Below are positions 1 to 40,278 of a stretch of DNA of 40,899 nucleotides, piece by piece. Within the stretch, counting starts at the first letter, position 1; every line of letters starts with the position of its first letter. The notes beneath the pieces are model-generated. The model searched no databases, was not told the DNA's origin, and worked only from the letters and a program-made list of their open reading frames with translations. The stretch lies in assembly GCA_000934665.2 (NCBI GenBank), contig JYFJ02003487.1, forward strand, positions 1-40,899, in the 5' to 3' direction. Source of the DNA: Catajapyx aquilonaris. Lineage: Eukaryota. The translations under genes were made by a program, and so were the position numbers.

Positions 1-94
1 CAAAAACTATTAGCATAGGACCAAACAAAACTCCATGCAAAGTTTGGTGCTTTTGTCCAACTTGTCCCCTTCATCTCGCTAAGAGCCCCCACTA

Positions 95-560
95 TCAGGT
101 GGAAAGCTAAATTTATAATTCTTGAAATAAAAATAAATTGAATCATTTCTCAGATTGCTCACCAGTCTGGTGTAAGGCAGTGGGAGATTATACAAAAAGT
201 ATTGTGCCTCTGGTGCAAGTGCTGCATAATAATAATTGTAGCGAGCCGAACTCTGCACTCGTTCCCTGTCTTGAGCCATTGTAGCGGTTATTAAATTAAT
301 AACCAAGGCATTCTTGTTTGCATAGTTCCGATTTGTCAGCAGCCAATTCTTCCAAGAAAACCCCGCCACCCAGAACAACCACCTCATTTCACTCCCGCAC
401 CTTGTCTCCTCCTCCGAATGTAACAACCATACCAGAGCTTTCTTACTCCATCTTTCTTCCGTTGGTGCTATGGTTCCTACCAGAAAATTCAGTAATTGCT
501 TAAAGATGTTCACCGATACGTTCCTTCTGCCCGTCTCCAATCGTACAAAATATTCTGCCC
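95..560 (-). mobile_element. Non-LTR retrotransposon (LINE) ORF2 3' fragment
   Basis: ORF 79-540 (YNLPLPYTRLVSNLRNDS..FKNYKF) resembles the LINE at 13027-13887 ([24 protein letters not shown]). Confidence 0.6.
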
Positions 561-679
561 AGACAGTCTATGTAGCAGATGCAGCCTGAATCACTTACTT
601 AGCTTCAGAAAACTGCCTGCTGTACCTAACGAGATCACATTGCACATGAAAATTACCAGATAAAACCTGCATTTTAATA

Positions 680-1428: not shown

Positions 1429-1647
1429 GCAAAGCTTTTGAACCTGTCACCGAGGGCGAGCCAGGAGGCTTGTGCGTTCCAACTGTCAGGAAGGATGGCC
1501 AACCTGTCAGCAGGAATCTCCTGGCAGTGTCGGCGGCTTCAGGGAATAATGGTGCCCTCCCTATTCGAAGAATCATCACACGAATGGCGTACTACATGGC
1601 CAGGGCTATGGGAGCAAAAGATGACACGTCTTCCTGTGATCCGAAAG
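1429..1647 (+). CDS. Exon: ADAM10/17-like metalloprotease domain, active-site helix region with degenerate zinc motif
   Basis: tttcag|GC...AAAG|gtagaa. Reads [18 protein letters not shown]...[24 protein letters not shown], which aligns by eye with the ADAM10 pattern GLAWVG..GGIC...ITFAHEVGHNFGSPHD..C. The donor is rather weak. Confidence 0.75.
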
Positions 1648-3877
1648 GTAGAAAGGAACAAAGGGGTTGAGTTTCCCTAGCTCTTTGAAGGTGGTTCACA
1701 TGGGCGTCATTGGGTGCAGTCCTTCATAATGTATCCCTTACCTGACAACCTATGTGCAATGCTGGTGCTACATCTATTTGCACCCACCTCGCCTCTGCGG
1801 AGGTCTTCTTGCAGCTTAGCACCAGTGAAATATTTCCTCTTCATTCCTAAAAACTAAAAACTTCATTCTGAAAAACTCAGTACTAATAAGTGTAATTAAC
1901 GTGACCCAACATGTCTTTCAGATCCTGACTTCTATGGCCATTTTTTGATGCACGGCCCCAATCAGGATGGCAGGGATAAGAATCACTGGCTTTTGTCATC
2001 ATGTAGCAAGTTGCAGATAAAGACCACGTTTATGGATCAAGGAAGCTGTTTTTTAGTTGGCGATACTTCATATTGTGGTAATGGTAAGTGCGATGCATCA
2101 GCAGATTACATGTTATGCGAGAAGTTCTGACTTGGATTGCTGACACCTTGATCGATTCATGCTCACATACAAAGCAGAATAATCCGTCACTTGAAGTGCA
2201 TTGGAAAAACTGTTTATGGGGGCAAAAGGTACCGGTGTATAATTATTGTGTACCGTAAGTGTGGGGGGTGATTTTGTGACAAATCAGATTATTCGAATCC
2301 TGCACCACAATATTATATATTAACTTTATGACTAAAACTGACCCCAGCAGATGGCTGTATATGATCTCTAAGAACCACTGGCACAGATGTGAATAGAGTA
2401 AAGTGAAAGTTATTAAAATTACAGTGTCCACTGCAGGCCGCAGGCCTAGAAAAAAGCGAGCGAAGCGCATGGTTTTCTAGTACGTATTATATTATTAATG
2501 ATCAATTCTAAATAGTTTATTGTTGTAAATATGCCAATTTGTCTAGAAATAACGAGCTTGTCGGGTTACTTTGTTATATTTTCAGTTTGGCATTTTAACC
2601 TTAAGGAAATGAGCATGACAAATATAAATTAATATCTTTGTAATAGATAATAAGTAATCGTTATGATCTGTAGATGAAGGATGAAAGTACAAAACTCAAA
2701 AAGACAGTTGTTGAGAATACATTACACCATTTCTGCTGATATGAAAAACCCCAAAAACTCTCATGAAGTCACCTGCACTTACTGTGTATATGTGCCACAC
2801 TGGAAACATTTTTGGTAGAGCAGGAAAAAAATATATAATAGAAGGGCTCTTCCATAGACAAGTTGCTCTGTGACAGTCTCCTATAGGAGTTAGCAGTTGC
2901 AAAGGACCATTTCACTCAATGCCATACAAGTCAGAGCCTATGGCTTGCTCACATGCTAAATACATGTCTCTTGACAGGGGTGATCGAGCCTGGCGAAGAG
3001 TGTGACTGCGGTACTCACCACGTAACCTTCGACTGTGGTCCACACAACAGCACTTGTTATCCTGCTATGCACAAGGACCAGTGCAGAATCATGTGAGTAG
3101 CTCCAGTGCTCGCAGACAATAATTCCCTTGGTCACATAGTTCACTTATTGATGGTGCGATGGACCAACCTTGTACAACTGCTCACAGTCAACAATTGTCA
3201 ACAATGGCCGTGACATGGCATCAGGGAAAGGTTTTTTCTTTCATGGATCTGGGTTTGGGTCCTTCCAAATACGCCGTACATCCTCGGATTGGCTCTCAGT
3301 GACATTAACCTATTCGGATCCATAAGAAAACCTCTTTGCCGACACCACTTTGAGGACAATGTTGAACAGAAAGCAGTTGTCTGGGGGTGCATGCATCACA
3401 CCACCAAAAAGTGGTTCCTGGAGGGCCTGCAGACGTTGCCATACCCATGACCCCTACGTATGCGGCTCCAGGAGGGTTCTATCGATAATTATCTGTGCCT
3501 ATCTGCCGACCTGCATGGGCCGTGTATTTGTAGCAACAAAAAAACGAAGTGTGAAGACCAGCCCCCTGACACATCCAGCCTATCCCTGCGTTGACAGTAG
3601 TTTAATATAAAAGTCTTCGCCACATGGGGAATTTGGCTCTGGTGAGCCTCCGCAGCTGTCTACTGGGGGGTCGGTTTAGGTTGGCCACCTTCGGAACCAA
3701 CCCAAGCCGTCCTTTCCTCGGAGGGCGTTTGCAGACTAGCATGGGGGTGGCTGGCTGCGGCAGCCGGCTGCAGGGGCGCTCCAGCACCAAACTACGCGCA
3801 TGGCGGAGACTTTTCTATTAAACAGCCGCATGGTATTTCCATCAGGGGACTGGTAAAGACTTTCCAAACACTCTGCA

Positions 3878-3948
<71 letters not shown>

Positions 3949-6900
3949 GTTTATATAGAACGACCAGTACGGCAGGTAATCCTGTAAAATTTTGAACAAT
4001 TGCGCCTTTAATGATAGAAGCATGAATCTTGGCGCACCTGTAGTAGACAACACCCTAATGGACGTTTTTGGATATAGGGCCATCTGAGATTTTTCTGTAA
4101 CTTAATTGGCAGCCATTTTTCAAGCTGGCCACTAGGTGTCATGTAAACGCCGTATTTTTTGTAGCTATTCATGTTCAATCATTTACTTGAGGCCATGTGA
4201 TGACTATTAGAAGTGAAACTTACTGTAGAAGTAAAAATGAAGCATAGTACAGTGAAACCTGTGTATAGCGTAATCGCACGGGACCCAAAAATTTTCAGTT
4301 ATGGACAGGTTTCCGCTACAACCAGATCAAGGACGTTACTATTTTTTTTGCTCACGAGAAAGAGAGGGAAATGGGGAGAGCAAAAATAAGCACCTTACCT
4401 CCATATGGTGCAAAATCATAATTTTGCCTGCTCCATGGGACCATCAGCCCGGACTCTGGCAATATATTGAACCCGTGTCAACCCCTTCCTCTTCCCCGAC
4501 ATAACTGGACTGAACCGTGAACTAAAAGGTACCTACGAGTCACATGACATGAGTCACGTCTTCTTGGCCCATCTATCCTGAAAGCCGATTTTCAAGTTTC
4601 GGAACCAAAAATATTGCCCCTATCCTCATCCTTTATCTTCAAGGCCACAGGCCATAGCAATTCCAGAAATTACTAGACACAAGTGGTCCAAAAAGGGTTA
4701 CTCAGAGGCCACCTGGAATTGCCGATAGTGAACCCTGCTGTGGTTTCTATTTTTGTGACTCGCAGGATATAATGCGAACCTTTTGATTTCCGCTATGAAC
4801 AGGGATTTTCTCTGAAGGGAGCCAAAAATCCTTTCCCTTTCCGCGTTGGGCAGGTTCCGTTACATCCGTCAAAAATACATTGTATGCCCAATGCATATGC
4901 CCGTTACCGGAAAAAATTCCGGAATGGATAGGTTTCCGCTATATCCAGGGTTCGTTATGGGTGGGTTTCACTGTAGTATATGAAACTAATGATTGGTTAT
5001 GTTCAAAATTTAGAGCATAAAACGCCTAGATCATTTTCTCGATCCATTCAAGGGAAGCAATGGAAGCTGTGGTGTTGAGACCATCGTTATTTGGGCCCAG
5101 GCTGGTCATTGCTGGGCCCAAAAAAGAATCCAGAGTATGCTGCATGAGGGCATCTTGCATGGGAGATATAGTGTCAATTGCTCTACCTTTCTGACTAAAT
5201 AGGCGTTTTCTTGCTTCATTAAGATATTATTCATCGATGCTAGTATGATCATAGAGCAAAACTACAGTTCTCTCCAGGGGGTTCATCTTTTCTTCTACAG
5301 CCTGCTTACTAGGCCTGTGAGCTAATCTACACACAAAAATTTAAAAAAATAAATTGCAACATCGTCATATGCATTCCAGGTGTCCCATGCAGTCCTCTTG
5401 CATGCTTTTTGCTCTATCAAAGGACACATTCTCTCACTCAGTCATTGCGCGAAACATCTGTAAGGCATTGCAACGGTCAGCATCCAAAGCGTTATGCCCG
5501 TACTAATGACCGTACTAATAATATGTTAATGAGGCAAGAAATGGCCGAAGTAGTGAGAAAGGTCTAGCAATTGCCCATTGACAATATACCTTCCAGCTTT
5601 TTTGGGCCCAGCAGTAACCATCAGCCTGATGGTATACCTACCAGGCTGGTTACTGCTGGGTCCAAATAATGATGGTCTCAACACCACAGCTCCCATCACC
5701 ACATGATTGGAGGTGGAAGAAGGATGAAGGCGGATATAAAATACACTGTAGTCCCAATTACAGAGGCGTTGCAAACGCTCGATTTTGCTTGCCATGGCAA
5801 AGAAAAAAGAGTGCAAATCTCAGATGGGGGCAGATATGAAAAGTAACAAAAATAGTTTTGAACAGGTAACTGTCAACGTGACCTATGGTGAAAATATCAA
5901 AAAATTAACAAGTTGATTGAGCAACCACTCCTTGGCCATTTCACATCAAATTACCCTCGGAATGACCTAACATAAACGTGTTGTCCATGTGACCTGGATC
6001 CTTTTTTTCCAGGCGCTTGGTGCATAACCTTCTAATTCTTCTCACTTACCACTCTTGCAGCACACCGACAACTTGCAAAAATGACACTGACTGGCCATGC
6101 GTCTTGTGCAATCGTCCAGGGCTTCCAAACTGCCTTGCAAAGGAGAGGCCTTGTGGCATGCATGAGGTCCCCTGTAGGCTCGGGTACGCCTACTGCATAA
6201 ACCAGCCGAACCAACCTAGACCGTGCCATTGCCGCCCGTACGAGAAACCATGCTGTAACCAGTCACAACTAGCTGGTTGCGAATCTAGGCCCTGCCGGTT
6301 CAACGAGCTCCCCTGCACTTATCCTAACTTCTGCGAGGAAGGTGAATACCCATGCATCCGATGCGGAGAGCCTGGTCAAATTAAATGCGATCAAGATTTG
6401 TGCCACAAGACCTGCCCAAAGTGCAGGCTTTGCAATGAAGACGAATCGCCATGCTTGGTGCGAAGACTCTGCCATCCTGAAGAGTATCCTTGTTCACTGA
6501 ATTGCACAAAAGGCGACAAGAAGTGCAATCGCTGCCAGGTTGAGTATCCATGCGTCCGGCTCCCCAGGGCTTGCCTGCCCAACTTCTGGGGTCTACCCTG
6601 CGGAGAGCAACGTTACCAACAGTGTCCAAGTGGGCCACCTGTAGAGGCCTGTAAAAGTGGAGAGATTCCGTGTTTAATGTACTTACCCTGCAAAAGTGAT
6701 GGTGCCAGATACTGTGTGGAGTGTGGAACCCCTGGACGGCCCGAGTGCACGGACTGCACAGAACCATGCAGATTTGATGAATTGCGGTGTGTCTATAACC
6801 CCCGTTCAGCCCCCGAAAAAGATTCTGCAGAGAATTTTTGGCCATGGCCACCACAACCGACAGCTACGGCACGACAGGGACCAGCAGAGATACAGGGACC

Positions 6901-9900
6901 TGCAGTGATGTCACAGGCACTTGCAGTGAGAGAGGCACCTGAAGTGAAGACAAAGGCTCAAAAATGCCTGTCACCTAGCTGCAAGATTAGAATCGGCACC
7001 ACCCCGAGGTGCAAGGGTAGGAATCGACCATGCAACGTGTGTGATATTCCCTTCGATTACCCAAAGTGTATTGAGGTGAAAATTCCCTGCGATGTGGCTG
7101 TGAACGCATTCACCTGCAATAGGGTAAAGCAGTGCAGGGAAGATGAGGAGCCCTGCTGCGACAAGAGTAAGTCCTTATTTTATTCTTGCATGCCTTAAAT
7201 ATAACTGGCCGGTTCCATTTCAATTCTGACAGAGGGTGACCAGTCATGGCCTTAGATTTTTTTGAACAAAAGATATGTGAAACCCATATCCAAGTGAACC
7301 TTTATGGAGCAATCAAATTTACGAGATTAAATCTAGTTATCGAGAAATTAATATTTATTTTAAGGGGTACCTAAATAACCTTCACGGGAAGTGCACTTTT
7401 TCCATTGCTTTCAATGGGTATATTTCCGGAACCGTTCTGAAAACGAATATGAAATTTTAAACTCATGCTTTTGGAATAATGCTCTGTTATGTAATGCATA
7501 CATTTACCTTATTTAATGGTACAGTCACCTTCAAAAAAATCTACAATCTTGCATATTTTTGTCAAAAATGAGCATATTTCGCAATTTATTACGTCGTTAT
7601 GGTACCCTTAACGGTTGTGCTGATTATATTTTGTGATGTACTCGGTCACCCCCTAAAGGTTATTAAATAAAACCTTGGTTAGCCCGCGTGTAGTTGAGAT
7701 ATGTGACGCGAAAATATGGCAACAAGTGAACACATGCATATTTCAAAAATTATGTTCTCAAAAACGCATTTTTTAATATAAAAAAATTTATTTTACCTGG
7801 ACAAACAGGTTATAAAATGAAGTAGTGTCAAAACCCGGTGCATATTTTTTGTAAGGGAGATACTCTTTTTTTTTCAGATGACTACTTTCGTCATTGTGCT
7901 ACAATACAGCACACTGCACACTTTCTCGAAGAAGCCATTTTAAATATTTAATCGTTATTTTTTGTATAACAAAGTAGCATGAGTTCTATTATAAAATTAT
8001 ATCAAAATTCGGCATGCACAATGCCGTAATTTACTGGTACAGTCATCTTCCGAAAAAATCGCCAAATGTGCTTGTTTTGCTGGAAATTCACTTAGTACGC
8101 AATTTATTATGGAGTTATTATTAAGGTTATTGTAGGGACGATAGTCCCTATAGTAAGACCAAACGACCGAAAACAACAATGAAATGTCCCGCTTTTTTGA
8201 CGAAGCATAACTCAAAAACCCTTACAGATAAAGGTTTCACAGTTTGAACATGACACCAGCTCGGCGTGACGGACGATCCTTTTCCTGTCAGGTTATAGCG
8301 AATTCCTTCGCACAACGCCAGAAAAAAATCTTATATCGGTATTCTCTATAATAATGAAGTTCTTCTCTTAGCAACGATGTAACTCTCTATTTAAAAAATT
8401 CAACATTCTCTATTAATAGAATTAGGCCCGTATTCATAATGGAATTCGAACGAGGGGTCGGGGTTGAACCCGGGGTTGAGGCGGAGTTGACCCCGGGTTC
8501 GTATTCATAATGGCCTTGAAACCCCGCGATCCGGGGTTGAGTCGGGCGGGGAGTTGACTCCGGTCCTGGACCAGGGTTCAGTTCTGAACTCGGGGTTGAG
8601 GTCGATTGCAAAAGGCGGAAGGGGTCGAAATTCATGCCGTTCTGAAGCGGCTAGACCTCCGACGCGTGTGTCTGAGGGACCGGGAGAACCCGATGGAGGT
8701 GTACGACGACGCGACGCGTCCCTCCGGCAACTATACCGCCTGCGGAAAGACTGCGTGTTGAACCTGCTCGAAATGATCGCGGCAGACCTCGTTCTTCCTC
8801 TGTGCCATTCATGTAGCAGCTACGTCTGAACTATTACCTCTTCGGCGTCATCGAAAATATTAGCTGCCAATAGCAGCATAGCCTACATGTAATGAATCTG
8901 CTGGAACCACGTGCCACATGCGGCACCAATGCCAATCCGGGAGTCCGCAAAGAAGGCTGCCACTCCCGCGCCACACGCGGGGTAAAACAGGGCACTGTAT
9001 TTTTTCCAGGTCAACCCGACAGGATTCATTACAAGATTGATTACAAGTATGCTGCTATTGGCAGCTAATATTTTCGATGAAGCTGATGTAGCTGCTACAT
9101 GAATGGCGCAAATAACTGCTATTTGTAACTGTTAATCGTCACTTGAACTTGTGACCTGCTTGTGACCATAGAGTAAGGCTTGTGACGCCCTGTAGCTGGT
9201 AGGATACATTAGTATTCTGATGTACAGTACACCTTCTACAATTTTTGTAGGAAAAGAATGCGTCTCGTACCACCCCGCCATGAAGTACAAAAATAATGGT
9301 CACTGTTGCTCCTCACCCAAAATCTTACCTCAACCAGCCCCCTGAGTTAATTATAGCTTATTCGGTACAATAGATGCTGGTCAGCACTTGCTATTTGGTC
9401 CAATAGTCAGCTCATTTACAGGCGCATATTTTACAATATACTGCAGAAGTTGGGTGACAATAATGGCTATGGCCATTATAGTCAGTGGGTGAGGAGCAAC
9501 AGTGGCCACTTTTGATCTCAGACCCATCACTATAGTGATGGGTCTGAGATCAAAAGTGGCCAAGTCCACTGCAGAAATCATGCACTTTAATGTCATTGGG
9601 TATTAATTGCACATTTGCGTATATGTAGCTGACGAGCTTTGCGGCAACGTAATAATTATATGGTCGTACAAGAGGTTAACGTAAACGCGCCCGATTAAAT
9701 CCTTAGTTTTAGCTTAGCAAAGGTGAATTTTTAGTTAGCTTATTAGCTGTTAGAGAAGCTAATTTTTCGGATAGCTGTGCCCACCTCTGTTCTGTTAGTA
9801 AGTTAGGGTGAAATTTTTGTCGTACTACTAGTTACTTCTAACTTATAGCAGTACCAGTGTAGTGCAATACTGCAAATGTACTGCTAAGTTAGCAGTAACT

Positions 9901-27900: not shown

Positions 27901-30900
27901 TTTTCAGGGCCAACACGAGCATCCGTAAAGGGTCACCAAAGGACCATTGGTCGAGTTCTCCATCTTAACCTGTAGCTGCCTCCTTCACAGCCCAATACAA
28001 AGATGTCACCAATCAAAACGATTATGCGGAATTGGGGGACTCTTCCAGGTACCAAAATTACGCCGAACAAAAAAAGTGCCAATTGCACGAGGCTTGCTTT
28101 TCATACAATTTCCCCATTAAAATCACCAGGATAGTGGCAAATTTAAGCAGTGAATCTCATTACTTGCGAATTCAAGGCTATACATGTTTTCCATCCATCC
28201 ATCAACTGATTGTACATTGCGTTACCCACACAGACTAGCTAGTCTCTAGCATGAATTGTACACATGTTCTTGCCATGAAGTATGCACCTCTCAGAGTGGC
28301 CCCAAGTCTCGCCAGATGAGACTTAACATTTCATTGCATGATCCTCCGCCCCACTCACTATACCAACTGTACTCCATCTTCGTCCATTCAACCAGGCTGC
28401 AATGACGTGCAGACATTGTTCTGGAACCCTAACAACGTTGCTGCATACCCAGATCCCCACCCTGATTGTTAAGATTAGCTTCCACCTTGGCGGTCCAATT
28501 AGTCAACGTCATCACTTGCAAATTCCTTTTTTTTGTGAATTGATTTGTTAGTGAATATTATGACGGCAGATATTCAATGAATATTACCACACAATGCGCC
28601 AACATGTGGCAAGAAAAACTTCTTTTTAAACCATCCATGTTTTGATAGTTTTTGCAAATATTAATTTGGCGCGTCATAAGCAAATATGCACCATTTTTTC
28701 ACTCATTCAAATTGTATAAAATCTTGAAGCGTCTGCTCCAGCGCAGTCAGTCGAGATCTGTTTGCTCATCAGCTCAGAAATGTGTTACTGAGTGCGTACT
28801 TCTCAGTGCAATAGTTTGCACAGGTATTGTTTCTTGCATCATATTTGCTGCAAATTTTTATACAGTTGTTATAATAGAGCTCTTCTGGTAACTGTGTCTT
28901 TCCTCTTGTATTAACAGAAAGCAAGCCATGTCCCGATGGTTGGGAATACTACGGACATCACTGCTATCGCATTTACAAAGAAAGAAAACATCGGAACAAT
29001 GCTCTATTGACTTGCCTAGGGTTAACTCCTAGAGCTAACCTGGCCAGTTTCCACAGCGATATAGAAGCTAACGTAGTGACAAGTAAGTCAATAATTTGCA
29101 AACATATTGAAACTTGAACTAACAATGTCGCAAAGGTTTATTGCATTATCCTGTATGGAATATCACTTTGTCCAATATGTATTCTGATGTACTCTCATTG
29201 ATGTGTCAGAGAACTCTCTTTGTCTGTTAGAGAAGATGCTATACACTTTAATTTTTGAACATCTGTTTCGGGTGTTCAGTACATTCCGTTGAATTGCATA
29301 TTTCAATTTTCAGGGCATTTGTTTCGCCACATGTGGATTGGACTCAAATACCTGGGGACGCCAGGCAAATATAACTGGAGTGATGGTACTCAAGTGGTAG
29401 ACGGTTATCTCAAGTGGATGGATGATGAGGAACCCGACTCTGAGGAAGAGAAGTGTATAGAACTAGTCCTACATCAAACCAACAGCGCATTGGGCATCGA
29501 AATGGGGAGATTGAACAACAATAACTGCGACAGGGAATTAAACTTTGTCTGCAAATTAAAGAACCGGCCAGGTAAATATAGGTGTTAATAATGATATGGT
29601 CAGGTCCGTAGAAATGTATCACGTGGATTGGTTCCATTTTTAGAAGGATGTCCGACTCACTGGATGACTAGAGGATCGAGCTGCTTCTACTTCTCGACTG
29701 TCAAGCTCTCGTGGACAGAGGCGAGGAAGTATTGCGTGCGGAAAAATGCAGATTTGGTCAGTTTCAGTGACGACATGGAGCAGTCCTACTTAGCGAGTAA
29801 GTCATTCTGAGACATAGAATTACGTACAACTTCAACATAAATAAAAAATTACTGTAATTAACCTGGACTGTTTTTCAGGTGAAATGGTTCCAGACGTTTG
29901 GATAGGCTATTATTACAGTAGCAGTGTATCGGAATGGCAGTGGCGGGACAGAAGTGCAGTTGGCTACGAGAGATGGAACGAAGGGGAGCCCGATGATGAA
30001 ACAAGCAAGAGCTGTTCCCACGTACTTTTCACAAAAAAGTGGTTCAGCCAAGGATGCGAAGCATCTAACCGTTGCTTTGTCTGCAAATTCCCTCTGCAAG
30101 GTACGGACATTTTATTTACAAATGTATCATCACAGTACTGCACATGTAATATTGTAGAAGCCAACCATGTCCCTCTGGATCAGGGGTTTTTAAACTTTTC
30201 GATGCCCCCTGCACCCCCGGGAAATGTTTCATTAATGTTCGCACCCCCTTCGAAAGTACTGTCAGACAACGGTGTCTAATGTTTGATTTTTGAACCACAA
30301 ACTGAAACATGTACGAGGGATGTTCAAGTCATTCCCGGACTTTATTTTTTAACAAATCACACACAGGTGACACAGGTGTCAAACTTTGGTCATTACTCCA
30401 CATAGTCCCCTACAACAGCACAACATTTTCCCCACCGATGTATAAGCCCTTTTATCCCAGCAGCATAGAATGAGAGTTCCCCCCTCCTCAGCTACGCCAG
30501 GACAGCTTCTTGCACTGTCTCATTCGTCTCGATGACAAATGCTCTTTTAAAGGCCCAAAAAGGTGGAAATCGATGGGGGCGAGGTCGGGGCTGTATGGCA
30601 GGTGAGGAATAGTGGTCCAATTGAGTGTGCGAATTTTGTCCATGGTAATATGGGCTGTGTGGGGGCGGGCATTGTCCTGCAGTAGAATAATGCCTTGCAG
30701 ACACCTTAGAGACGTGAAGGTGTTCATGCAGAATAGTCTCAACACTGCCACAACTGATTCCTGTCATCTGCATAAGTCCACGAACAGTTAACGCAACGGT
30801 TACTGAGCACTAAACCCTCCACATCCTTGATGTTCGCTGGCGTCACCACACTCGGCGCCGACGCACCATGTCCCGGATCATCGAGCACACTTTTGCGGCC

Positions 30901-33900
30901 ACCTTTGTATCGTGCAGCCCACTCGTACACCACCGATCTGCTCAGGGTATCCTCCCCATACTGTCTCCTTAGTCTGGTGACAATGTCCGATGTTTTGATG
31001 CCTTCCGCTACCAGAAAATTAATGATAACGCGCTGTCCCACTACTGCGCTGACACCATCCGATGCCATCTTTTTTTTCTCTGTCACATGACTGTTTACAG
31101 AGACTGGCCCTTGACTGAACATACAAGACAGTTGAAGGAAGGTGTGGTATAAGTTTGACACCTGTGTCACTTGTGTATGATTTGTTAAAAAATAAAGTCC
31201 GGGAATGACTTGAACACCCCTCGTACATACACGCAGAGAGAGCCCCGTGGTGCGGAACCAGTCTAAGTTAATGTTCAAATTCTGATTTTTTTTTGGCCCT
31301 CAGGATGCAATAATTATAAGTGTCAGTTCTATTATTTTAATGTTTATTCCCCGCCGCTCTCTGTCTCGACCCCTGAAACTTCATCTCGCGCCCCCTGCTA
31401 TCCATTTTCAAAATATTGGCCCCAGTGTTTGACTCCAGACAACTCCCATGAAAATGGTCCAAACAAATTTATACATCATTATGAAGCTTATTTAAATCTA
31501 TGCAACATATATATGCAAGTTGTTTACCTATCTTCATTGTGTAATTTTTTTATCGCAAGAAGAACACGGAAAGGTGTCATTTTTTGACTAGTTGCCGACG
31601 TTACGCCACAAAATGACACTTCTCGGAGGCCAAAAAATTCCTCCTGTGAACCCTGGATAGTGCAAATCTTTGTCTATGTAATGATATATTTGAAACAAAG
31701 AAATCGACATTTGTGTAATCATAATTAAGTTAATTGCCCACCTCAGTTATCTCGGACGTTTCTCATCCGAATTACTTCGCGAATGCATAGAAGGCAAGGC
31801 AGAAATGTGCATGATAAAATTGCACCGTGCTGTATTACACTAAGTTTTTAAAATTATTGGTTTAGTAAGTTTAATAGACAAGTACCCAGCCCGCTTTCTG
31901 GAGAGAATAGACAGCCATACTTTTAAATCCGTGTAGAAAGTTTCGTGTAATAGAGCACAGTGCAATTTTATCACATACATATATGGCTTGATATCGATAC
32001 ATTCGTGAAGTAATCGAATGAGAAACGGCCGAGGTAGCTGAGGTGTGCAATCAACATAATCATGGTTACACAAATGGCGATATCTAAGTTTCAAATATAT
32101 CATTAGACAGAGAAAGATTTGCACTGCCCAGGGCTCACAGGGGGAATTATTTGGCGTCCGAGAAGTGTCTTAAAATATTCATTTTGCGGCGGCAACTAGT
32201 CAAAAACTGAGACCCTTCCGTGTTCTTCTTGCGTATTCTTGCATTTCTGCGCATTTCTTGCAATAGAAAATTACACAATGAAGATAGGTTAACAACTCGC
32301 ATGTATGTTACATAGATTTAAACAAGCTTTCTAAGGATGTATAACGTTAGGATAAGCTATTGTTTATCCGCACGTTAACAACAAGGCCTCCCGACGGTTG
32401 GCAACTTTGCATCGCAAACAATCGGGTGCCTATTGATACTGCTGCATGGTTACATGGAACTGTGCTTTATTCTTCTTTTCGGGCTTTCGGGGATTCAATT
32501 CGGGATTTTGAGGTGATTAAGTGGATGGAATAGCCCTTTGTCTTGGTGGTGCTGTATGGCTTTTTGTTACCGCAACATTACTGTACATTGTTGTGGTCCT
32601 GCCAGGCACGGTACGTCGCCCGTCCCTGATATTTTTAGTTTATGCGGAGCGATAGCGGAGCTGGGCGCTTATTGTGGGTTTCTGTATCCGCAACATTGAC
32701 TGTCCCTTTTGTGGCGCCGCAGGCCAACCAACGCTATTGTGGCTTTGCCAAGCGCGAAGTACACCTTCACACAGTCACGACGCCAAGTTCCGCCCGCCAC
32801 CACCCGGCTCTCCCCTCCAATCATGCCCACGACTCACTCTGCAGGCATACTGCTGCACACGCTCAGAAAACACGGCTGGTGTGACATGATATCGTTCTTT
32901 GGATTAACGGACTGCAGCACAACCATCATGGCTTTTATATTTCCCACCTCCTTCATTAATATTGATTGGGTAGTGCTTTCACCCTATCCGGGTATATCGC
33001 ATGGACCTTTATTTGTTGTATACATTGGAGCCTTTATACGTATCACCCGGGCCCACGGGCAGGATGACAGGAGGGGATGTGCAAGTGCAGTGCATCTGAC
33101 GTGTGGCCATTTTTAGTGAGCTCCCCCGGGTGGTTTAGTCTGTAGGAAATACCACCCGAGACGAAGCCAGAGGTGACCGACCTCTGCACGAGATGAAGGG
33201 GGTGTCCCCGGGCTGGGATCGAACCCGGGACCTTAACATCCGTGGGCGCGCGCGTTACCGCGGCGCCACTCCGTCTCCCTTACCTCCTTCATTAATACTG
33301 TGGTCCTAGCACTTGTCTTAACGGTTCGCGTGGCAGGGGTAAGAAGACGCCCTTTGTTGTGCTCTCCCGGCAACCGGTTGTTTGCGACGCGTAGCCGACA
33401 TGTTTGAAGCACCGCGTCGCTATGTGCGGATAAACGATAGACTTTCCTAACGTTATTTATTATTTGGATCATTTTCCTGGGAGTTTTCTAGAGTCAAACA
33501 GAGGGGCCAATATTTTAAAAATGGATAGGGGTGCGGGCACCCCAGGTTAAGAATCCCTGGATGGATCAGACATGACACCAGTTGTTACAACTTCTCTTGA
33601 GAGTCACTGCAATGGCTACCTTACGCTCTTCAGGAGTGTGGAAATTTAGACGAACGAGCTATTCTGGTTACAGTGGTTGACGACAGTGAATGCAACTTTG
33701 TTAAAGCAACATCCATTTTGTACAGTGTTGGACATTAATCGGGTCATAATGCTTGGGACATTTTCTGATGCAGATGAAGTGCAAATCAAGGCGAGCTGTG
33801 CGAGTAAGAAGAGGTAGGCCTTGAGTGACGTCACCGGATGGGGGGAAATGGAGAGAAGGCTTGTCCCCCAGCCAGTGACGTCACCCAAGGGCTACCTCTT

Positions 33901-36161
33901 CTTTCTCGCACAGCTCGCACTCTTATCACTTCGATTTGCACGTCTGCCGCAGCGGAAAATGTCACTAGCAGTATGACGGAATTAATGTCCAGCACTGTAC
34001 AGTAGCACAATTAAAACCTGTGAATAGCTCGTCTCTGTGGTGTCTAGGATCATTTTCTTATTATCCGGCGACACCCGTGCAGTCATTAGCCCGGATAATC
34101 GGGAGGACAGTGTAATGCCAGGGTATTGGGCCACCGTGTGTTGTATTGCAAGTTACATGTATTTTCATTTTCTCCGTAGCAAAATGCCAATCGTATTGTG
34201 ATAATGAATGGCCCTGCGTGAAGAAGAGGCAGTGCAAGGAAGAGGAAAACCCGTGCCTCTTGTGTGGCGCCGTAGATCAACCCTCCTGTCATCATGACGT
34301 TTGCCTCAAGGCATGTCCGTGCGGAACCCGTGCACCATACAGTAATTGCACGGAGTACGCCAATGTTAGTGCGTGCAAAGAAGGGTGCGCCAAACTCCAC
34401 GAACCGTGCTATTCGTGGTGCGCCAAGCTAGGGGCCATGAAAGCCAGATGCCTGAATGACTGTGATGACAACAGGGACTTGTGCGACGACATGTGCGATT
34501 ACCAAATGAGAACCTGCGACAAGATGTGCAAGGAATGCGAAAAGACATGCAATGAGTGTATCAAAGAGGGCTGCGATGCATCGGAGCTGCCGTGCATCGA
34601 GGGCAACTGCTGGGAACAATCGCGTTATGGACTCAGCATACCTTCCAGCGGAGCAAATCTGCCGGATTGCAAAAAAGTGATGAATCCATTCATACCTTAC
34701 GATGGACCCGATGAAAAATGCGTGATCAAGGCAGGGAACTGCGAGGCAGGAGAAACCCCCTGCAACGTGGATCAATGCAGAGAGAAGGACGCAAACTGCA
34801 GGCGCTTAGAGGGTGCGAATTCGCCAAAGCGATATTGCAATCTGGACGAGATGCCGTGCACCCCTAGCTGCGTGACCCGCGCTTGCGGACAGAGACAGTG
34901 CAACGCCACCGAGATTGAGATTCCCTGTGCCCTGGAGCCAGTTCCGTGCGCATATCTTGAGGCACCATGCTATCACACTGGCGAAGGTAACGAAACCTAC
35001 CAGCTTCCCTGCCGCCTGGGCCAGATTCCGTGTGTGATGGGACTTGAATGCATGATGAAAAAAGAAAGTCCTTGCACCATATGCGGGAGGAAAGGCCATC
35101 CCGACTGCAAAGACGTAGTGAAGCCGTGTAGCCGTCTCAACGAGGTGCCATGCAGACGGCCGGAAGCGTGCATGGAAGGAGAAACACCATGCGAGGGGCT
35201 GGCCTGCAAGGGCCATTTGCCTTGCCTGAAGGCACGTCTGTGCGATTATGAAGAGAGGCAGTGTGTCCCGTGCGGCCGCACAGGAGAACCACCATGCGAT
35301 TGGATGACCTGCAAGCGGTTGTGCAAATCGGAGCGATGCCGGAGTGATTGTGAGGTTTGCCACACGTGCGACAACGGCGAGGTCCCATGCACCCCGAGGT
35401 TGCACTGTCACACCAGGAAATGCGCACAACTTTACCCAGATTGTGACTTTGATAGTGCTGCATGCAAGAAGTGCGAGCAGATGAAGAGGTGGTGCCAATG
35501 GAGAGGGGATAAGCCCTGCTACGATCATCCCGACTGCAAGTATTGGGACCAGCCTGGGTGCAAAGGACGAGCCCCATGCTTTGGGACCAAGCCTTGCGCA
35601 TATCCCAGGTTGTGCGAGCCCCAGGAGTATCCCTGCGTGCTTTGCGGAGTCCCAGGCCATCCTCCATGCACCACCTGTGAGAGGGCTTGCAACATTCACG
35701 AACTTCCGTGTAATCGAACTCAGGTGTGCACGTTCCTCACGCCGTGCACCATATGCGACAGACCAGGCTATGAGAATGTGCCGTGCTCTAGTATCCTGCC
35801 ACCCGACCGTCCTTGCGACATCAGCGAGTTGCCGTGTGAGCTGGAGAAGGTTTGCGAGCACTTGGAAGAAGTACCTTGCGTGGAGTGTGACTGGCCAGGG
35901 TTCCCAGACTGTGATCAAGTAAAGATTCCGGATCGGCCGTGCAAGCCCAGAGAGTTGCCTTGCGCGAAGAGGGGAGTGCCTGACAGCCTGGTGAACGCCA
36001 CCGTATCCAGATACAACTATGTGCAGACCATGAGGCCCAAGCGGTATGCCCCGTACGTCACAGTCCAGGATCCGACGAGCGCCACTGGCCGGATGAGGGC
36101 TTTGTGTTGGGACATGGCCTTGACCTTAGCCTCTGTCGCTTTCTATCTTCTGCTGGAGTGA
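1429..36161 (+). CDS. Large mosaic cell-surface protein, 5'-partial, 28 exons: ADAM10/17-like pseudo-metalloprotease, partial disintegrin, Cys-rich repeats, 11 CTLDs, Cys-rich repeats, GPI-like signal
   Basis: Manual join: 1429-1647, 1922-2083, 2978-3092, 6061-7166, 11687-11851, 12088-12324, 12397-12552, 12637-12852, 14777-14941, 15181-15408, 15842-16018, 18266-18493, 18569-18721, 19143-19367, 19440-19595, 19676-19711, 19940-20164, 20242-20397, 20727-20951, 21024-21179, 21544-21768, 21841-21999, 22082-22306, 28918-29082, 29314-29571, 29644-29796, 29879-30100, 34180-36161. All are AG/GT-bounded, stop-free and phase-matched (all phase 1 except the phase-2 junction 3092/6061). 7895 nt in total. 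Confidence 0.75.
1922..2083 (+). CDS. Exon: ADAM10/17-like Met-turn, end of the metalloprotease domain, start of the disintegrin domain
   Basis: ctttcag|AT...AATG|gtaagt, 162 nt, phase 1-1. [30 protein letters not shown]...[13 protein letters not shown] matches the ADAM10 pattern GNYIM...SG...NN.KFSxCS...CF...CGNG. Confidence 0.85.
2440..2481 (+). mobile_element. Probable Helitron 3' terminus
   Basis: gcgagcgaagcgcatggttttCTAG-t: degenerate GC hairpin followed by CTAG|T. Confidence 0.5.
2978..3092 (+). CDS. Exon: disintegrin domain N-terminal part
   Basis: ttgacag|GG...AT|gtgagt. Reads [47 protein letters not shown] signature of ADAM disintegrin domains. Too short for the ORF track. Confidence 0.88.
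3190..3450 (+). pseudogene. Decayed mariner transposase C-terminal fragment
   Basis: [47 protein letters not shown] resembles [23 protein letters not shown]. Confidence 0.7.
3600..3823. mobile_element. MITE, about 224 bp
   Basis: TIRs gtttaatataaaagtcttcgcca / tggcggagacttttctattaaac. Confidence 0.7.
3878..3948. repeat. (TAT)n microsatellite
   Basis: Perfect trinucleotide run of about 23 units. Confidence 0.98.
4250..4973. mobile_element. pogo/Tigger-like non-autonomous element
   Basis: TA-cagtgaaacc...ggtttcactg-TA, with subterminal aggtttccgcta repeats. Confidence 0.8.
5061..5695. mobile_element. Foldback-type MITE
   Basis: Diverged inverted arms at about 5061-5228 and 5520-5695. Confidence 0.75.
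6061..7166 (+). CDS. Exon: first Cys-rich ExPC repeat region
   Basis: Within ORF 6017-7198. The phase-2 acceptor ttgcag| fits the 3092 donor, giving [17 protein letters not shown] (compare ADAM10 CKLKPGKQCSPSQGPCC). An alternative in-phase acceptor exists at 6012. Phase-1 donor A|gtaagt. Confidence 0.85.
8425..8800 (+). mobile_element. PIF/Harbinger 5' end with transposase N-terminal relic
   Basis: TTA|ggcccgtattcataat terminus; [17 protein letters not shown]..(frameshift)..[23 protein letters not shown] is HARBI1-like. Confidence 0.75.
8801..9110. mobile_element. MITE with long TIRs
   Basis: tgtgccattcatgtagcagctac..catcgaaaatattagctgccaatagcagcata, with its reverse complement at 9048-9110. 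Confidence 0.75.
9503..9562. repeat. Perfect 60-bp palindrome
   Basis: tggccacttttgatctcagacccatcacta|tagtgatgggtctgagatcaaaagtggcca. Confidence 0.95.
9807..9923. repeat. Small inverted-repeat element
   Basis: Imperfect arms of about 46 bp. Confidence 0.6.
10055..10624. mobile_element. Young MITE with near-perfect TIRs of about 202 bp
   Basis: 10055-10256 versus 10423-10624: one substitution and one indel seen. Confidence 0.9.
10960..11160 (+). mobile_element. mariner 3' remnant
   Basis: [27 protein letters not shown], then a TIR-like ttttgaacaccccgcg-TA. Confidence 0.7.
11197..11360 (+). mobile_element. tRNA-derived SINE, degenerate
   Basis: A-box-like gtggtgaccgagatggt and B-box ggttcaatccc; no intact cloverleaf. 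Confidence 0.7.
11687..12324 (+). CDS. CTLD 1 (exon A1 11687-11851 + B1 12088-12324)
   Basis: [24 protein letters not shown] / MWIGL..WSDG..C..LKDNNC..FACE. Confidence 0.9.
12397..12852 (+). CDS. CTLD 2 (exon C1 12397-12552 + D1 12637-12852)
   Basis: [23 protein letters not shown] / VWIGLHY..WTDG..KPN..C..WNNLLC..FVCK. Confidence 0.9.
12861..13907 (+). mobile_element. 5'-truncated LINE with C-terminal CCHC motif and (AAAT)n tail
   Basis: [29 protein letters not shown]; tail at about 13882-13907. Confidence 0.85.
13908..14495 (+). mobile_element. LINE reverse transcriptase fragment (R1/LOA-like), decayed
   Basis: [24 protein letters not shown]; contains stops and frameshifts. Confidence 0.8.
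14777..15408 (+). CDS. CTLD 3 (exon A2 14777-14941 + B2 15181-15408)
   Basis: [22 protein letters not shown] / MWIGL..WSDG..FICE; canonical splice sites. Confidence 0.9.
15474..15838 (+). mobile_element. Helentron/DINE-1-like non-autonomous element
   Basis: Absent from paralogous introns. Subterminal IR tagactttttc/gaaaaagtcta, (ctgt)n microsatellite, 3' stem-loop aatcac..gtgatt, ends tcttgtt within a T run. Confidence 0.7.
15842..18493 (+). CDS. CTLD 4, hybrid (exon C2 15842-16018 + B3 18266-18493)
   Basis: C-type N-half containing an in-frame 21-nt duplication, joined to a B-type C-half across an intron with a ~1.9 kb insertion. Confidence 0.8.
16245..18155. mobile_element. Composite ~1.9 kb intronic insertion including a TIR element at 17281-17965 (possibly Kolobok-like)
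   Basis: Absent from paralogous introns; TIR taatggggaactagcctt / aaggctagttccccatta. Confidence 0.65.
18569..19367 (+). CDS. CTLD 5, hybrid (exon C3 18569-18721 + B4 19143-19367)
   Basis: [15 protein letters not shown] / MWIGL..WSDG..FVCE; acceptor shifted 3 nt (taatag|). Confidence 0.85.
18958..19003. mobile_element. 46-bp hAT-type micro-element
   Basis: 19-bp TIRs (18/19 match), 8-bp target-site duplication (TSD) attctgat, empty site in paralogous introns. Confidence 0.9.
19440..20164 (+). CDS. CTLD 6, hybrid (exon C4 19440-19595 + putative micro-exon 19676-19711 + B5 19940-20164)
   Basis: [18 protein letters not shown] / [12 protein letters not shown] / VWTGL..FICE. Confidence 0.8.
20242..20951 (+). 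CDS. CTLD 7, hybrid (exon C5 20242-20397 + B6 20727-20951)
   Basis: CTLD cysteines and WIGL motif intact; phase 1-1 exons. Confidence 0.85.
21024..21768 (+). CDS. CTLD 8, hybrid (exon C6 21024-21179 + B7 21544-21768)
   Basis: CPPDW..SCYYF / MWIGL..WTD..VACK; phase 1-1 exons. Confidence 0.85.
21841..22306 (+). CDS. CTLD 9 (exon C7 21841-21999 + D2 22082-22306)
   Basis: [18 protein letters not shown] / VWIGLHY..FVCK. One conserved Cys is replaced by Tyr. Confidence 0.85.
23625..24446 (+). CDS. gag: Gypsy Gag-like protein
   Basis: Intact 273-aa [46 protein letters not shown]. Confidence 0.9.
   Translation: MMAPPRTSAATAPVKIPPFWPEDPQLWFAQVEAQFAVRGITAEKARFDHVLASLAPEVATQVRDIIMHPPSTEQYTALKGALISCTTVSESQCLQQLLRDMDLGDQRPSQLLRRFEQLYDRQLNEEPIFRELFLQKLPQQVRLVLAATPEQSLNQLAAMADKLTDAVQLPSASSAAAVAIPAAEGQPPAADTSGLEELRSNVAALTAAVQKLAAGHRRPTRIRPAARPKPSPAPVRAAAQQAGDQTICWYHAEFAENARICRQPCSFMMGNDN
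24431..27557 (+). pseudogene. pol: Gypsy pol, with frameshifts near 24630, 24990, 25740 and 26760 and a stop at 27312
   Basis: PR, RT, RH and IN are spread across several ORF fragments. Confidence 0.9.
28918..29571 (+). CDS. CTLD 10 (exon A3 28918-29082 + B8 29314-29571)
   Basis: [13 protein letters not shown] / [19 protein letters not shown]. Confidence 0.88.
29644..30100 (+). CDS. CTLD 11 (exon C8 29644-29796 + D3 29879-30100)
   Basis: CPTHW..SCFYF / VWIGYYY..WNEGEPD..FVCK; phase-1 donor G|gtacgg. Confidence 0.9.
30314..31223 (-). mobile_element. Internally deleted mariner
   Basis: TIRs of about 72 bp, TA TSD. HTH N-terminus ([20 protein letters not shown]) and [24 protein letters not shown] are present; the central part is deleted. 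Confidence 0.95.
32350..33447. mobile_element. Merlin-like TIR element
   Basis: TIRs ggataagctattgtttatccgcac / gtgcggataaacgatagactttcc; 8-bp TSD taacgtta. Superfamily inferred from GG termini and TSD length only. Confidence 0.65.
33035..33279 (-). mobile_element. tRNA-derived SINE
   Basis: Minus strand gggagacggagtggcgccgcggt...ggttcgatccc (A and B boxes), followed by a non-tRNA body. Confidence 0.75.
33723..33997. mobile_element. Palindromic Tc1-type MITE
   Basis: TA-cagtgttggacattaat...attaatgtccagcactg-TA; empty site in the paralogous intron near 22522. Confidence 0.9.
34180..36161 (+). CDS. Terminal exon: second Cys-rich ExPC region and GPI-anchor-like C-terminus
   Basis: Within ORF 34146-36161. 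Phase-1 acceptor ttttcattttctccgtag|. Ends ...[29 protein letters not shown], i.e. small residues, a spacer and a hydrophobic tail with no cytoplasmic segment. Confidence 0.88.
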
Positions 36162-38799: not shown

Positions 38800-39045
38800 T
38801 TAACGGCCGTAGTAGCCGTAGCCCAGGCCGTATCCTCCGAGGCCGCCGTAGTACCCGCCGTAGCCTCCGTACAGGCCGTGTCCGCCGTAGTAGTACTGGG
38901 GGTTGGCCAGGGTCACGGTGGCCAGGATGGCCAGAACCAGAAGAACCTATTTAGATCACACAAGGATGATGATGATGATAATCCCCCTGCTTAAGTCATC
39001 AAAACAATTAAAAATGAAGTTAATCCAACTTACCAGATACATCAT
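38800..39045 (-). CDS. Small secreted Gly/Tyr-rich peptide, 52 aa (exons 39034-39045, 38800-38946)
   Basis: MMYL|VLLVLAILATVTLANPQYYYGGHGLYGGYGGYYGGLGGYGLGYGYYGR*. Signal peptide, GT-AG intron, TATA box upstream, AATAAA at 38608-38613 (minus strand). Confidence 0.92.
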
Positions 39046-40061: not shown

Positions 40062-40278
40062 TTAACGGCCGTAGTAGCCGTAGCCGCCGTAGCCGCCGTA
40101 GCCAGCATAGCCGAGGCCATAGCCGCCATAGCCGCCATAGCTGCCGTAGTACTGAGGCACAGCCAGGCTCATGGTGGCCAGGAGGGCCAGAACCAGCATG
40201 ATCTGACCAGATAGACCATATAAATTTAAAATTTGCAAAGCCATATAATATAACGATCCAACTTACCAGATACATCAT
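40062..40278 (-). CDS. Small secreted Gly/Tyr-rich peptide paralog, 50 aa (exons 40267-40278, 40062-40202)
   Basis: MMYL|IMLVLALLATMSLAVPQYYGSYGGYGGYGLGYAGYGGYGGYGYYGR*. Same exon structure; AATAAA at 39913-39918 (minus strand). Confidence 0.92.

Follow-up and report, generated by a model that had tools for sequence, protein, structure and literature searches.

We analyzed a 40,899-nucleotide (nt) stretch of the Catajapyx aquilonaris genome (assembly GCA_000934665.2, contig JYFJ02003487.1, positions 1 to 40,899 of the forward strand), hereafter the window. Its plus strand carries three short ADAM-like exons, two long Cys-rich exons that share an orphan repeat, and, between the latter, an array of C-type lectin domains (CTLDs) with a candidate promoter and start exon of its own. 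We propose, with roughly even confidence, that these exons would belong to two neighbouring genes with a shared history, one ADAM-like and one encoding eleven lectin domains. All conclusions on splicing rest on the genomic sequence itself, a contig window of eukaryotic DNA; the exon structure, frames, motifs, and divergence were read directly, and from them we infer the splice partners used, the glycosylphosphatidylinositol (GPI) anchor, the membrane span, and the function. The ADAM-like and Cys-rich exons are as follows.

1429 to 1647, plus strand: exon A (219 nt; acceptor tttcag/G, donor AAG/gtagaa), C-terminal part of an ADAM10/17-like metalloprotease domain
1922 to 2083, plus strand: exon B (acceptor tctttcag/A, donor ATG/gtaagt), a Met-turn-like Met and then ...SSCSK...CF...YCGNG
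2978 to 3092, plus strand: exon C, start of a disintegrin-like domain, ending in phase 2
6061 to 7166, plus strand: exon D (1106 nt; phase-1 donor AGA/GTAAGT), 52 Cys in 370 residues and three copies of the orphan repeat
34180 to 36161, plus strand: exon T, the terminal exon (1982 nt; phase-1 start), 95 Cys in 660 residues and six copies of the orphan repeat

An earlier sequence-only reading of this DNA had joined all of these exons and the lectin array into one chain. When 27 exons were assembled from the borders that it claimed, every intron was of the GT-AG type and a single open frame of 2612 codons resulted, ending at the TGA at 36159-36161. The three junctions that it had named (3092/6061, 7166/11687, and 30100/34180) lie at canonical GT-AG sites in phases 2, 1, and 1, respectively. 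The in-phase splicing that it described for three short plus-strand exons (A to C) was confirmed, as was its distinctive phase-2 junction, which leads from exon C to the Cys-rich exon D. Its account of a Cys-rich terminal exon with a hydrophobic tail also held, since exon T starts in phase 1 and no 19-mer of the model other than the one at its end is strongly hydrophobic. The GC content of the exons was 0.45-0.55, compared with 0.31 in the array introns.

The ADAM-like exons were compared with published landmarks of the family. The zinc-binding consensus of ADAM and M12B proteases is given as HEXXHXXGXXH (PMC4885070). At this position exon A has neither His nor Glu, so the consensus is not matched; the Gly alone is retained, and all four catalytic residues are substituted. 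In addition, no HExxH was found in any plus-strand frame of the window outside the retrotransposon described below. With no zinc motif in exon A, the product would therefore be a dead protease. The Met-turn is placed 12-24 residues downstream of the zinc consensus (PMC4885070), and the Met of FLMHG falls within this range, 18 residues past the motif-equivalent position and across the A/B splice. The consensus of calcium site II in the Ds subdomain, XCGN(X)3EXGEXCD (PMC4885070), occurred once in the spliced model, at the B/C junction, and not at all in the six unspliced frames; the partial motif E.GE.CD occurred once in the window, compared with one occurrence across 300 shuffles. The site III consensus is absent from these exons, as it is from ADAM10 and ADAM17 (PMC4885070), and the disintegrin-like domain comprises only its first ~35 residues before exon D follows. 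The GC content of exons A to D (0.50-0.53) exceeded that of the adjoining introns (0.37-0.43). The Cys, Met, and CGN landmarks are presumably spaced as in human ADAM17, with no gaps needed.

In the profile and structure searches, each unjoined exon was a query of its own. Neither exon A nor exon B had a match in Pfam or the PDB, and exon C alone reached only a sub-threshold alignment to the Pfam Disintegrin family (E = 0.17; 13.1 bits where the cut-off is 35.1; profile positions 1-27). No usable match to exon B was found in the Atlas, and a word search with exon C returned one candidate with no match confirmed. Because the site II consensus is present across the B/C splice and the Met lies 18 residues past the motif position, we conclude that exons A to C in all probability descend from an ADAM10/17-type gene. 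Thus, where the sequence-only reading had seen ADAM10/17-type metalloprotease and disintegrin motifs, the descent is upheld through the site II consensus and the Met spacing, and the metalloprotease motif is not, as there is no zinc site. Bases 1-1428 hold transposon-like open reading frames (ORFs) only; the signal peptide, the prodomain, and the N-terminal two thirds of the catalytic domain sit upstream of the window.

Exons D (an open frame of 368 codons) and T are related to each other (BLASTP, E = 4e-13) through a repeat of ~40 residues in which six Cys are invariant and the core reads C-x2-C-G-x-P-G-x-P-x-C; the repeat is present in nine copies across the two exons. The last partial repeat of D and the first repeat of T are each other's closest relatives. 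No relative of exon D was found among 1.84 billion protein representatives; 241 candidates sharing words with it included none that was significant, and none of 46 pattern matches in metagenome contigs was confirmed. Likewise, none of the 417 word-index candidates for exon T reached E <= 0.1, none of its 10 metagenome matches was confirmed, and its best score in the Atlas, 0.77, was to an unnamed cluster and revealed no relative. The Cys-rich exons matched no Pfam family, including the ADAM Cys-rich models. A likeness of the repeat to PHD/HIT zinc fingers in a PDB profile search was weak (E >= 0.08) and was treated as chance. AlphaFold2 models of three repeats (predicted local distance difference test score, pLDDT, 35) and of one repeat with a nine-row alignment (pLDDT 55) were too poor to be used for the fold. 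The 8-Cys repeat thus appears to be an orphan, uncatalogued element, for which a role as a stalk or a binding module is a candidate.

Exon T has no start codon of its own, and an AATAAA lies 3' of it at 36802. The only 19-mer of the 27-exon model with a mean hydropathy above 1.6 comprises residues 2593-2611 of 2612 and is preceded by SATG-RMR. As a rule, a GPI signal is a C-terminal hydrophobic segment with no cytoplasmic residues after it and with a short polar spacer and small omega residues before it. By this rule of thumb the C-terminal tail is GPI-signal-like, so the anchor that the sequence-only reading had called probable stands as a candidate. An inverted repeat of ~300 nt (33719-34001; 74% complementarity) lies just 5' of exon T.

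The region between exons D and T contains 11 CTLDs, each encoded by two exons on the plus strand; all 22 exons are of phase 1-1, with lengths that are multiples of 3.

11687-11851 and 12088-12324, plus strand: CTLD1, phase 1-1
12400-12552 and 12637-12852, plus strand: CTLD2, phase 1-1
14777-14941 and 15181-15408, plus strand: CTLD3, phase 1-1
15845-16018 and 18266-18493, plus strand: CTLD4, phase 1-1
18569-18721 and 19143-19367, plus strand: CTLD5, phase 1-1
19443-19595 and 19940-20164, plus strand: CTLD6, phase 1-1
20242-20397 and 20727-20951, plus strand: CTLD7, phase 1-1
21027-21179 and 21544-21768, plus strand: CTLD8, phase 1-1
21844-21999 and 22082-22306, plus strand: CTLD9, phase 1-1
28918-29082 and 29314-29571, plus strand: CTLD10, phase 1-1
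29647-29796 and 29879-30100, plus strand: CTLD11, phase 1-1
22426 to 22701, plus strand: relic after CTLD9, of which 22426-22648 copies the intron before exon T (87%) and the following 52 nt match the 3' end of exon D at 88% identity

The sequence-only reading had counted 23 CTLD exons for its 11 domains; the domain number is upheld, and the exon count becomes 22 intact exons plus one truncated relic at about 16100-16124. The Pfam family Lectin_C scored above its cut-off in 10 of the 11 second-half exon ORFs, and among all 22 exon ORFs 15 matched Lectin_C or UL45 (CTLD-like) and seven did not. When the 11 domains were aligned, the CYYF, WIGL, and W.DG motifs and the framework Cys were found to be kept, with CTLD9 lacking one canonical Cys. 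Sugar-binding CTLDs are defined by EPN or QPD together with WND; none of the 11 domains has any of these three motifs at the corresponding positions of the alignment, although CTLD10 and CTLD11 carry EPD and CTLD2 carries WNN. Two types of first-half exon (a and b) and two types of second-half exon (alpha and beta) compose the array: CTLD1-2 and CTLD10-11 are [a-alpha][b-beta], CTLD3 is a-alpha, CTLD4 to CTLD8 are b-alpha hybrids, and CTLD9 is b-beta. CTLD10-11, together with 324 nt upstream, are the closest relatives of CTLD1-2.

The truncated exon, of the beta second-half type, lies at 16067-16124 inside the 2.2-kb intron of CTLD4 and is 86% identical to 12604-12661; it shows that the CTLD4 hybrid arose by deletion or replacement. 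From the relic after CTLD9 it follows that exon T, the intron before it, the array, and D-type sequence were duplicated together. The inverted repeat 5' of exon T splits intron sequence that is contiguous in this relic copy. The intron between CTLD3 and CTLD4 (15409-15844) is 436 nt long, compared with ~75 nt in its equivalents, and contains proline-rich open frames.

Directly before CTLD1 we observed candidate elements of a gene start, and decayed copies of the start exon were observed before CTLD3 and CTLD10.

11480 to 11514, plus strand: core-promoter-like motifs, TATAAAA at 11480-11486 and CAGT/TCAGT with its A at 11510/11514, 30/34 nt downstream
11547 to 11589, plus strand: candidate first coding exon of the lectin gene, with the ATG at 11547, a 14-residue signal peptide, and the phase-1 donor CAG/GTATTG
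14636 to 14680, plus strand: decayed start exon before CTLD3, ATG changed to ATA and donor GT changed to AT
28782 to 28825, plus strand: decayed start exon before CTLD10, ATG changed to GTG and a 1-nt deletion

The two promoter-like motifs and their distance resemble those of a TATA box and an initiator (Inr). The start exon is separated from CTLD1 by a 97-nt intron that leads to 11687, and 24 exons then give a complete, 2093-residue ORF that opens with the ATG at 11547 and reaches its stop at 36161. To compare the start units, ~330 nt before CTLD1, CTLD3, and CTLD10 were aligned. TATAAAA, CAGT/TCAGT, and the start exon recurred in all three units, with the whole set intact before CTLD1 only. 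In the 49 columns of the start exon, the CTLD1 copy had no unique changes, compared with five in the CTLD3 copy and four in the CTLD10 copy. A scan for start exons that admitted exons of 14 codons returned the CTLD1 exon and a few weak others.

A candidate ending for the ADAM-like exons was located close behind exon D.

7573 to 7671, plus strand: putative terminal exon of the ADAM-like gene, read in the phase of exon D, with a transmembrane (TM)-like segment, a 12-residue tail, and a stop

The AG at 7571-7572, 406 nt past the donor of exon D, opens this in-phase exon, whose ORF of 31 codons extends to 7667 and has a Kyte-Doolittle hydropathy of 2.58 over 19 residues. Its stop overlaps an AATAAA (7666-7671), with a GU-rich stretch 3' of it. 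Among 1180 intronic AG sites that were scanned, 12 led to TM-like short ORFs, and only 1 of these 12, the exon at 7573, had an AATAAA at its stop. The canonical order in ADAM10 and ADAM17 is metalloprotease, disintegrin, Cys-rich, TM, and tail (PMC4885070), and a TM ending at 7573 would restore this order.

The array was further examined for its mode of divergence. The nonsynonymous divergence (Ka) exceeded the intron divergence (K) in 14 of 14 pairs, with Ka of 0.26-0.63, intron K of 0.11-0.37, and a ratio of Ka to synonymous divergence (Ks) of 0.64-1.52. In three multiple alignments, the identity in exon columns was 0.64, 0.74, and 0.68, compared with 0.85, 0.87, and 0.79 in introns and flanks (p = 2e-24, 2e-7, and 3e-4, respectively). 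Gap runs were multiples of 3 in 18 of 20 cases in exons and in 4 of 19 in introns, and of 2000 runs of a neutral simulation none left all 11 CTLDs open, even with 0.05 substitutions per site. Exon change that outpaces intron change while the frames are kept fits the mark that diversifying selection leaves on an array that is translated, as judged from these alignments; exon-biased mutation (e.g., at CpG) is an alternative. The internal units have no starts yet are open and therefore must be spliced into a longer message. No Rfam family reached its gathering score in the conserved array introns, and known RNA families thus leave the intron conservation unexplained. A docking/selector pairing of the Dscam type between the first intron and the array introns was considered and rejected, as only one 15-nt match was observed.

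We favour the two-gene reading because a terminal exon lies nearer behind exon D, because the promoter-like region and start exon of CTLD1 are intact with two decayed internal copies as controls, and because the 2093-residue model is complete. One claim of the sequence-only reading was not supported, namely that the exons necessarily form a single chain: behind exon D there is a nearer acceptor in phase, from which a segment resembling a membrane span, a stop, and a poly(A) signal follow, and CTLD1 has intact core-promoter-like motifs, a start codon, a signal peptide, and a self-contained ORF of its own. The split into several genes that it predicted of automated annotation may be the correct model. 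The link of the array to exon T is stronger than that of exon D to CTLD1, because T is without its own start, the internal units open without starts, and the same intron sequence follows CTLD9 and CTLD11. Several observations weigh on the other side. The acceptor at 7573 is a weak, disfavoured gAG, a nearer CAG acceptor at 7525 leads to a stop at 7571 with no membrane span, and the TM-like exon was sought after the fact; a terminal exon with a poly(A) signal is close behind exon D under either acceptor. The intact start exon of CTLD1, with 0 unique changes in 49 columns compared with 15 in 268 in the flanks (estimated p ~0.06), could be intact by chance. In addition, exon D has a consensus donor and shares phase 1 with T and all CTLD exons, which suits a single gene, and the repeat common to D and T is what a single gene would also show. 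The splice partners are sequence-inferred, and no orthologue was found in protein, word-index, and metagenome searches of exons C, D, and T.

The first rival reading, that of the sequence-only account, is one transcript in which the ADAM-like exons, D, the 22 CTLD exons, and T encode a giant GPI-anchored, non-catalytic ADAM-multilectin receptor, either as the sole product or as an isoform driven by the upstream promoter; we consider this unlikely. In its favour, every junction is GT-AG and in frame over 2612 open codons, the donor of exon D has the phase of all CTLD exons and T, and D and T have in common a repeat that our searches found nowhere else. The relic after CTLD9 would record the joint duplication of D-type sequence, the array, and the pre-T intron, and start exons have no acceptor, so a transcript arriving from upstream would skip the CTLD1 start exon. 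However, a matching phase counts for only ~1 in 3 at each junction, and among exons of phase 1-1 it is weak evidence for a single gene; the nearer in-phase acceptor after D, with its stop and AATAAA, and the intact promoter-like region, ATG, and signal peptide of CTLD1 beside two decayed internal copies both count against it. In the isoform version of this reading, read-through from the upstream ADAM promoter, with splicing from D to CTLD1, would yield a fusion form beside a lectin-only form; this tentative product, which we likewise regard as unlikely, would combine a dead ADAM17-type head, a stalk, 11 CTLDs, and a GPI anchor. No single-chain ADAM-plus-CTLD protein was found in the literature, of which the coverage was incomplete, with architecture databases outside the search. 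It is improbable that exons A to D are instead a decaying ADAM remnant, broken by rearrangement of the lectin units and T, with the lectin gene alone functional. The loss of all four catalytic residues, a disintegrin domain cut to ~35 residues with no site III consensus, the lack of profile matches to exons A and B, and the transposon fragments flanking the exons would agree with decay; on the other hand, four open exons with canonical splice sites, the 368-codon frame of D, an exon GC content above that of the adjoining introns, and an intact site II consensus and Met spacing would not, and non-catalytic ADAMs are a known functional class (PMC4885070). Very improbable, in our estimation, is an ADAM-like gene that ends in exon T (1193 residues in the window), with the lectin array as a later insertion that has its own promoter and borrows T. 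Splicing from D directly to T is in frame, the adjoining repeats of the two exons are mutually closest, and CTLD units carry relics of promoters and start exons, as inserted genes would; however, 22 exons with strong splice sites must then be skipped, and the TM, stop, and AATAAA exon after D is a simpler ending.

Under the favoured two-gene reading, the first gene would start upstream of the window and encode a catalytically dead ADAM10/17-type protein, of which the window would hold the final third of the metalloprotease fold, devoid of zinc ligands, ~35 disintegrin residues, and the orphan 8-Cys stalk of exon D. It would probably end in its own membrane span, 12-residue tail, stop, and poly(A) signal at 7573-7671, and the product would be an adhesion or decoy-type surface protein rather than a sheddase. 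The second gene would lie wholly in the window. Behind a core promoter of the TATA/Inr-like kind it would encode 2093 residues: a signal peptide of 14 residues, 11 CTLDs resembling those of mannose receptors, and a stalk of 660 residues that consists of the orphan repeat and ends in a hydrophobic, GPI-signal-like tail. We suggest that this gene grew via fusion and amplification of gene units, each consisting of a promoter, a signal peptide, and two CTLDs; that the internal units lost their promoters and start exons to decay after fusion; that unequal exchange produced the b-alpha hybrids and the one truncated exon; and that transposons entered the introns later. The second gene may thus encode a multivalent surface recognition receptor under diversifying selection.

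The remaining features of the window are mobile elements and small ORFs.

23203 to 27940, plus strand: long terminal repeat (LTR) retrotransposon in the intron between CTLD9 and CTLD10, in the sense orientation of the gene, LTRs 97.4% identical
13919 to 14164: reverse-transcriptase fragment in an array intron
30488 to 30763, minus strand: DDE transposase fragment in an intron

The retrotransposon encodes Gag (DUF7041), RVT_1, RNase H, and integrase over several frames, which indicates a defective copy; its LTR signals could truncate host transcripts. At the left end of the window, inverted repeat arms (672-824 and 1065-1225; 79% over 162 nt) surround the only N of the window and could represent a foldback element, an element like a miniature inverted-repeat transposable element (MITE), or an assembly gap. 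Two long ORFs, at 79-567 (minus strand) and 12952-13887 (plus strand), share ...YNLPLP...NLR... motifs with no Pfam match and resemble 3' parts of one non-LTR retrotransposon family. The intron between exons C and D contains a long trinucleotide microsatellite (3870-3950) that translates, according to frame, into poly-Leu, poly-Ile, or poly-Asn. Two paralogous small ORFs on the minus strand (38800-38946 and 40062-40262; DNA 75% identical) each consist of a hydrophobic leader and then a Gly/Tyr-rich peptide (...PQYYGSYGGYGGYGLGYAGYGGYGGYGYYGR); they have no Pfam match and resemble small secreted glycine-tyrosine-rich proteins.

Three results of this analysis are of most use: lectin genes whose fusion is still visible, exons that evolve fast, and the caution that the single-chain architecture calls for. 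If there are two genes, the locus is a clear case of a multi-domain receptor built by fusing two-lectin genes, with dead promoters and start exons still visible in the introns. The lectin array, in which exons outpace introns, is a candidate diversified recognition molecule of an arthropod, and an uncatalogued 8-Cys repeat is common to a dead ADAM and its lectin neighbour. The locus also cautions that in-frame splice compatibility of phase 1-1 exons says little about gene unity. If a fusion isoform does exist, it would represent a new ADAM architecture, a covalent counterpart of the venom protein RVV-X turned into a recognition receptor.

Compared with ADAM17 (TACE) and ADAM10 (Kuzbanian) of MEROPS family M12B, the ADAM-like exons have the same order and spacing of C-terminal metalloprotease landmarks, with the Gly and Asp of the motif region kept. 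They also resemble these proteins in the consensus at the metalloprotease/disintegrin junction, the absence of site III, the lack of an EGF domain, and a candidate membrane span after the Cys-rich part. Unlike ADAM10 and ADAM17, the locus has no HExxHxxGxxH, its disintegrin-like domain stops after ~35 residues, orphan 8-Cys repeats replace the canonical Cys-rich/membrane-proximal domain, and the candidate tail has only 12 residues. ADAM22 is an example of a non-catalytic ADAM that acts as an adhesion or receptor protein. Some ADAM members more generally act as adhesion molecules (PMC4885070). By analogy with the non-catalytic ADAMs, the locus would keep a protease fold without a zinc site, presumably as a binding module; however, those proteins belong to the classical branch, with complete disintegrin, Cys-rich, and EGF domains, whereas the locus is of the ADAM10/17 type with a novel stalk.

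Members of the mannose receptor family have N-terminal ricin-B-type and fibronectin type II domains, 8-10 CTLDs, a TM segment, and an endocytic tail. The lectin array resembles this family (MRC1, LY75/DEC-205, MRC2/Endo180, PLA2R, and the yolk-sac IgY receptor) in having many tandem CTLDs per chain, most of them without canonical sugar-binding motifs, and the best solved matches of its half-exons are CTLDs of this family (E = 1.9e-10 and 6.3e-19). It differs in that the candidate signal peptide runs straight into CTLD1 with no ricin-B or fibronectin-II head, in that a Cys-rich stalk and a GPI-like tail stand in place of the TM segment and cytoplasmic tail, and in that the array is built from lineage-specific two-CTLD units. 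The insect C-type lectin classes described in PMC7379682 are CTL-S, immulectins, which have two CTLDs, and CTL-X. The proposed unit of a promoter, a signal peptide, and two CTLDs is similar to an immulectin, and lineage-specific expansion is typical of the class (PMC7379682); unlike these insect lectins, the array joins eleven CTLDs in a single frame, and its internal starts are decayed. FTP, CCP, Ig, CUB, pbH1, and TM are given there as the partner domains of CTL-X; neither a metalloprotease nor the Cys-rich repeat of the locus is among them (PMC7379682).

RVV-X and other P-IIId snake venom metalloproteinases consist of an M12B-disintegrin-Cys-rich chain and separate lectin-like light chains (PMC4885070). 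RVV-X thus shares with the locus the pairing of metalloprotease, disintegrin, and Cys-rich parts with C-type lectin-like domains in one functional unit; however, it is an active protease made of separate polypeptides, whereas the protease of the locus would be dead and its covalent union with lectins is a candidate only. In snakes, the genes of PLA2 and lectin-like proteins have undergone accelerated evolution, with introns more conserved than exons. No report of exons evolving faster than introns in C-type lectins was found in the literature. The array resembles the snake PLA2 and lectin-like genes in that its exons outpace its introns, Ka is close to or above Ks, and the frames are open, and it differs from the venom genes in that the comparison is among tandem domains inside one gene and not among gene copies. 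Taken together, these comparisons suggest that three parts make up the locus: a non-catalytic derivative of ADAM10/17, a multi-CTLD protein similar to the mannose receptors, and an orphan repeat rich in Cys; a single-chain architecture of these parts is a candidate only.

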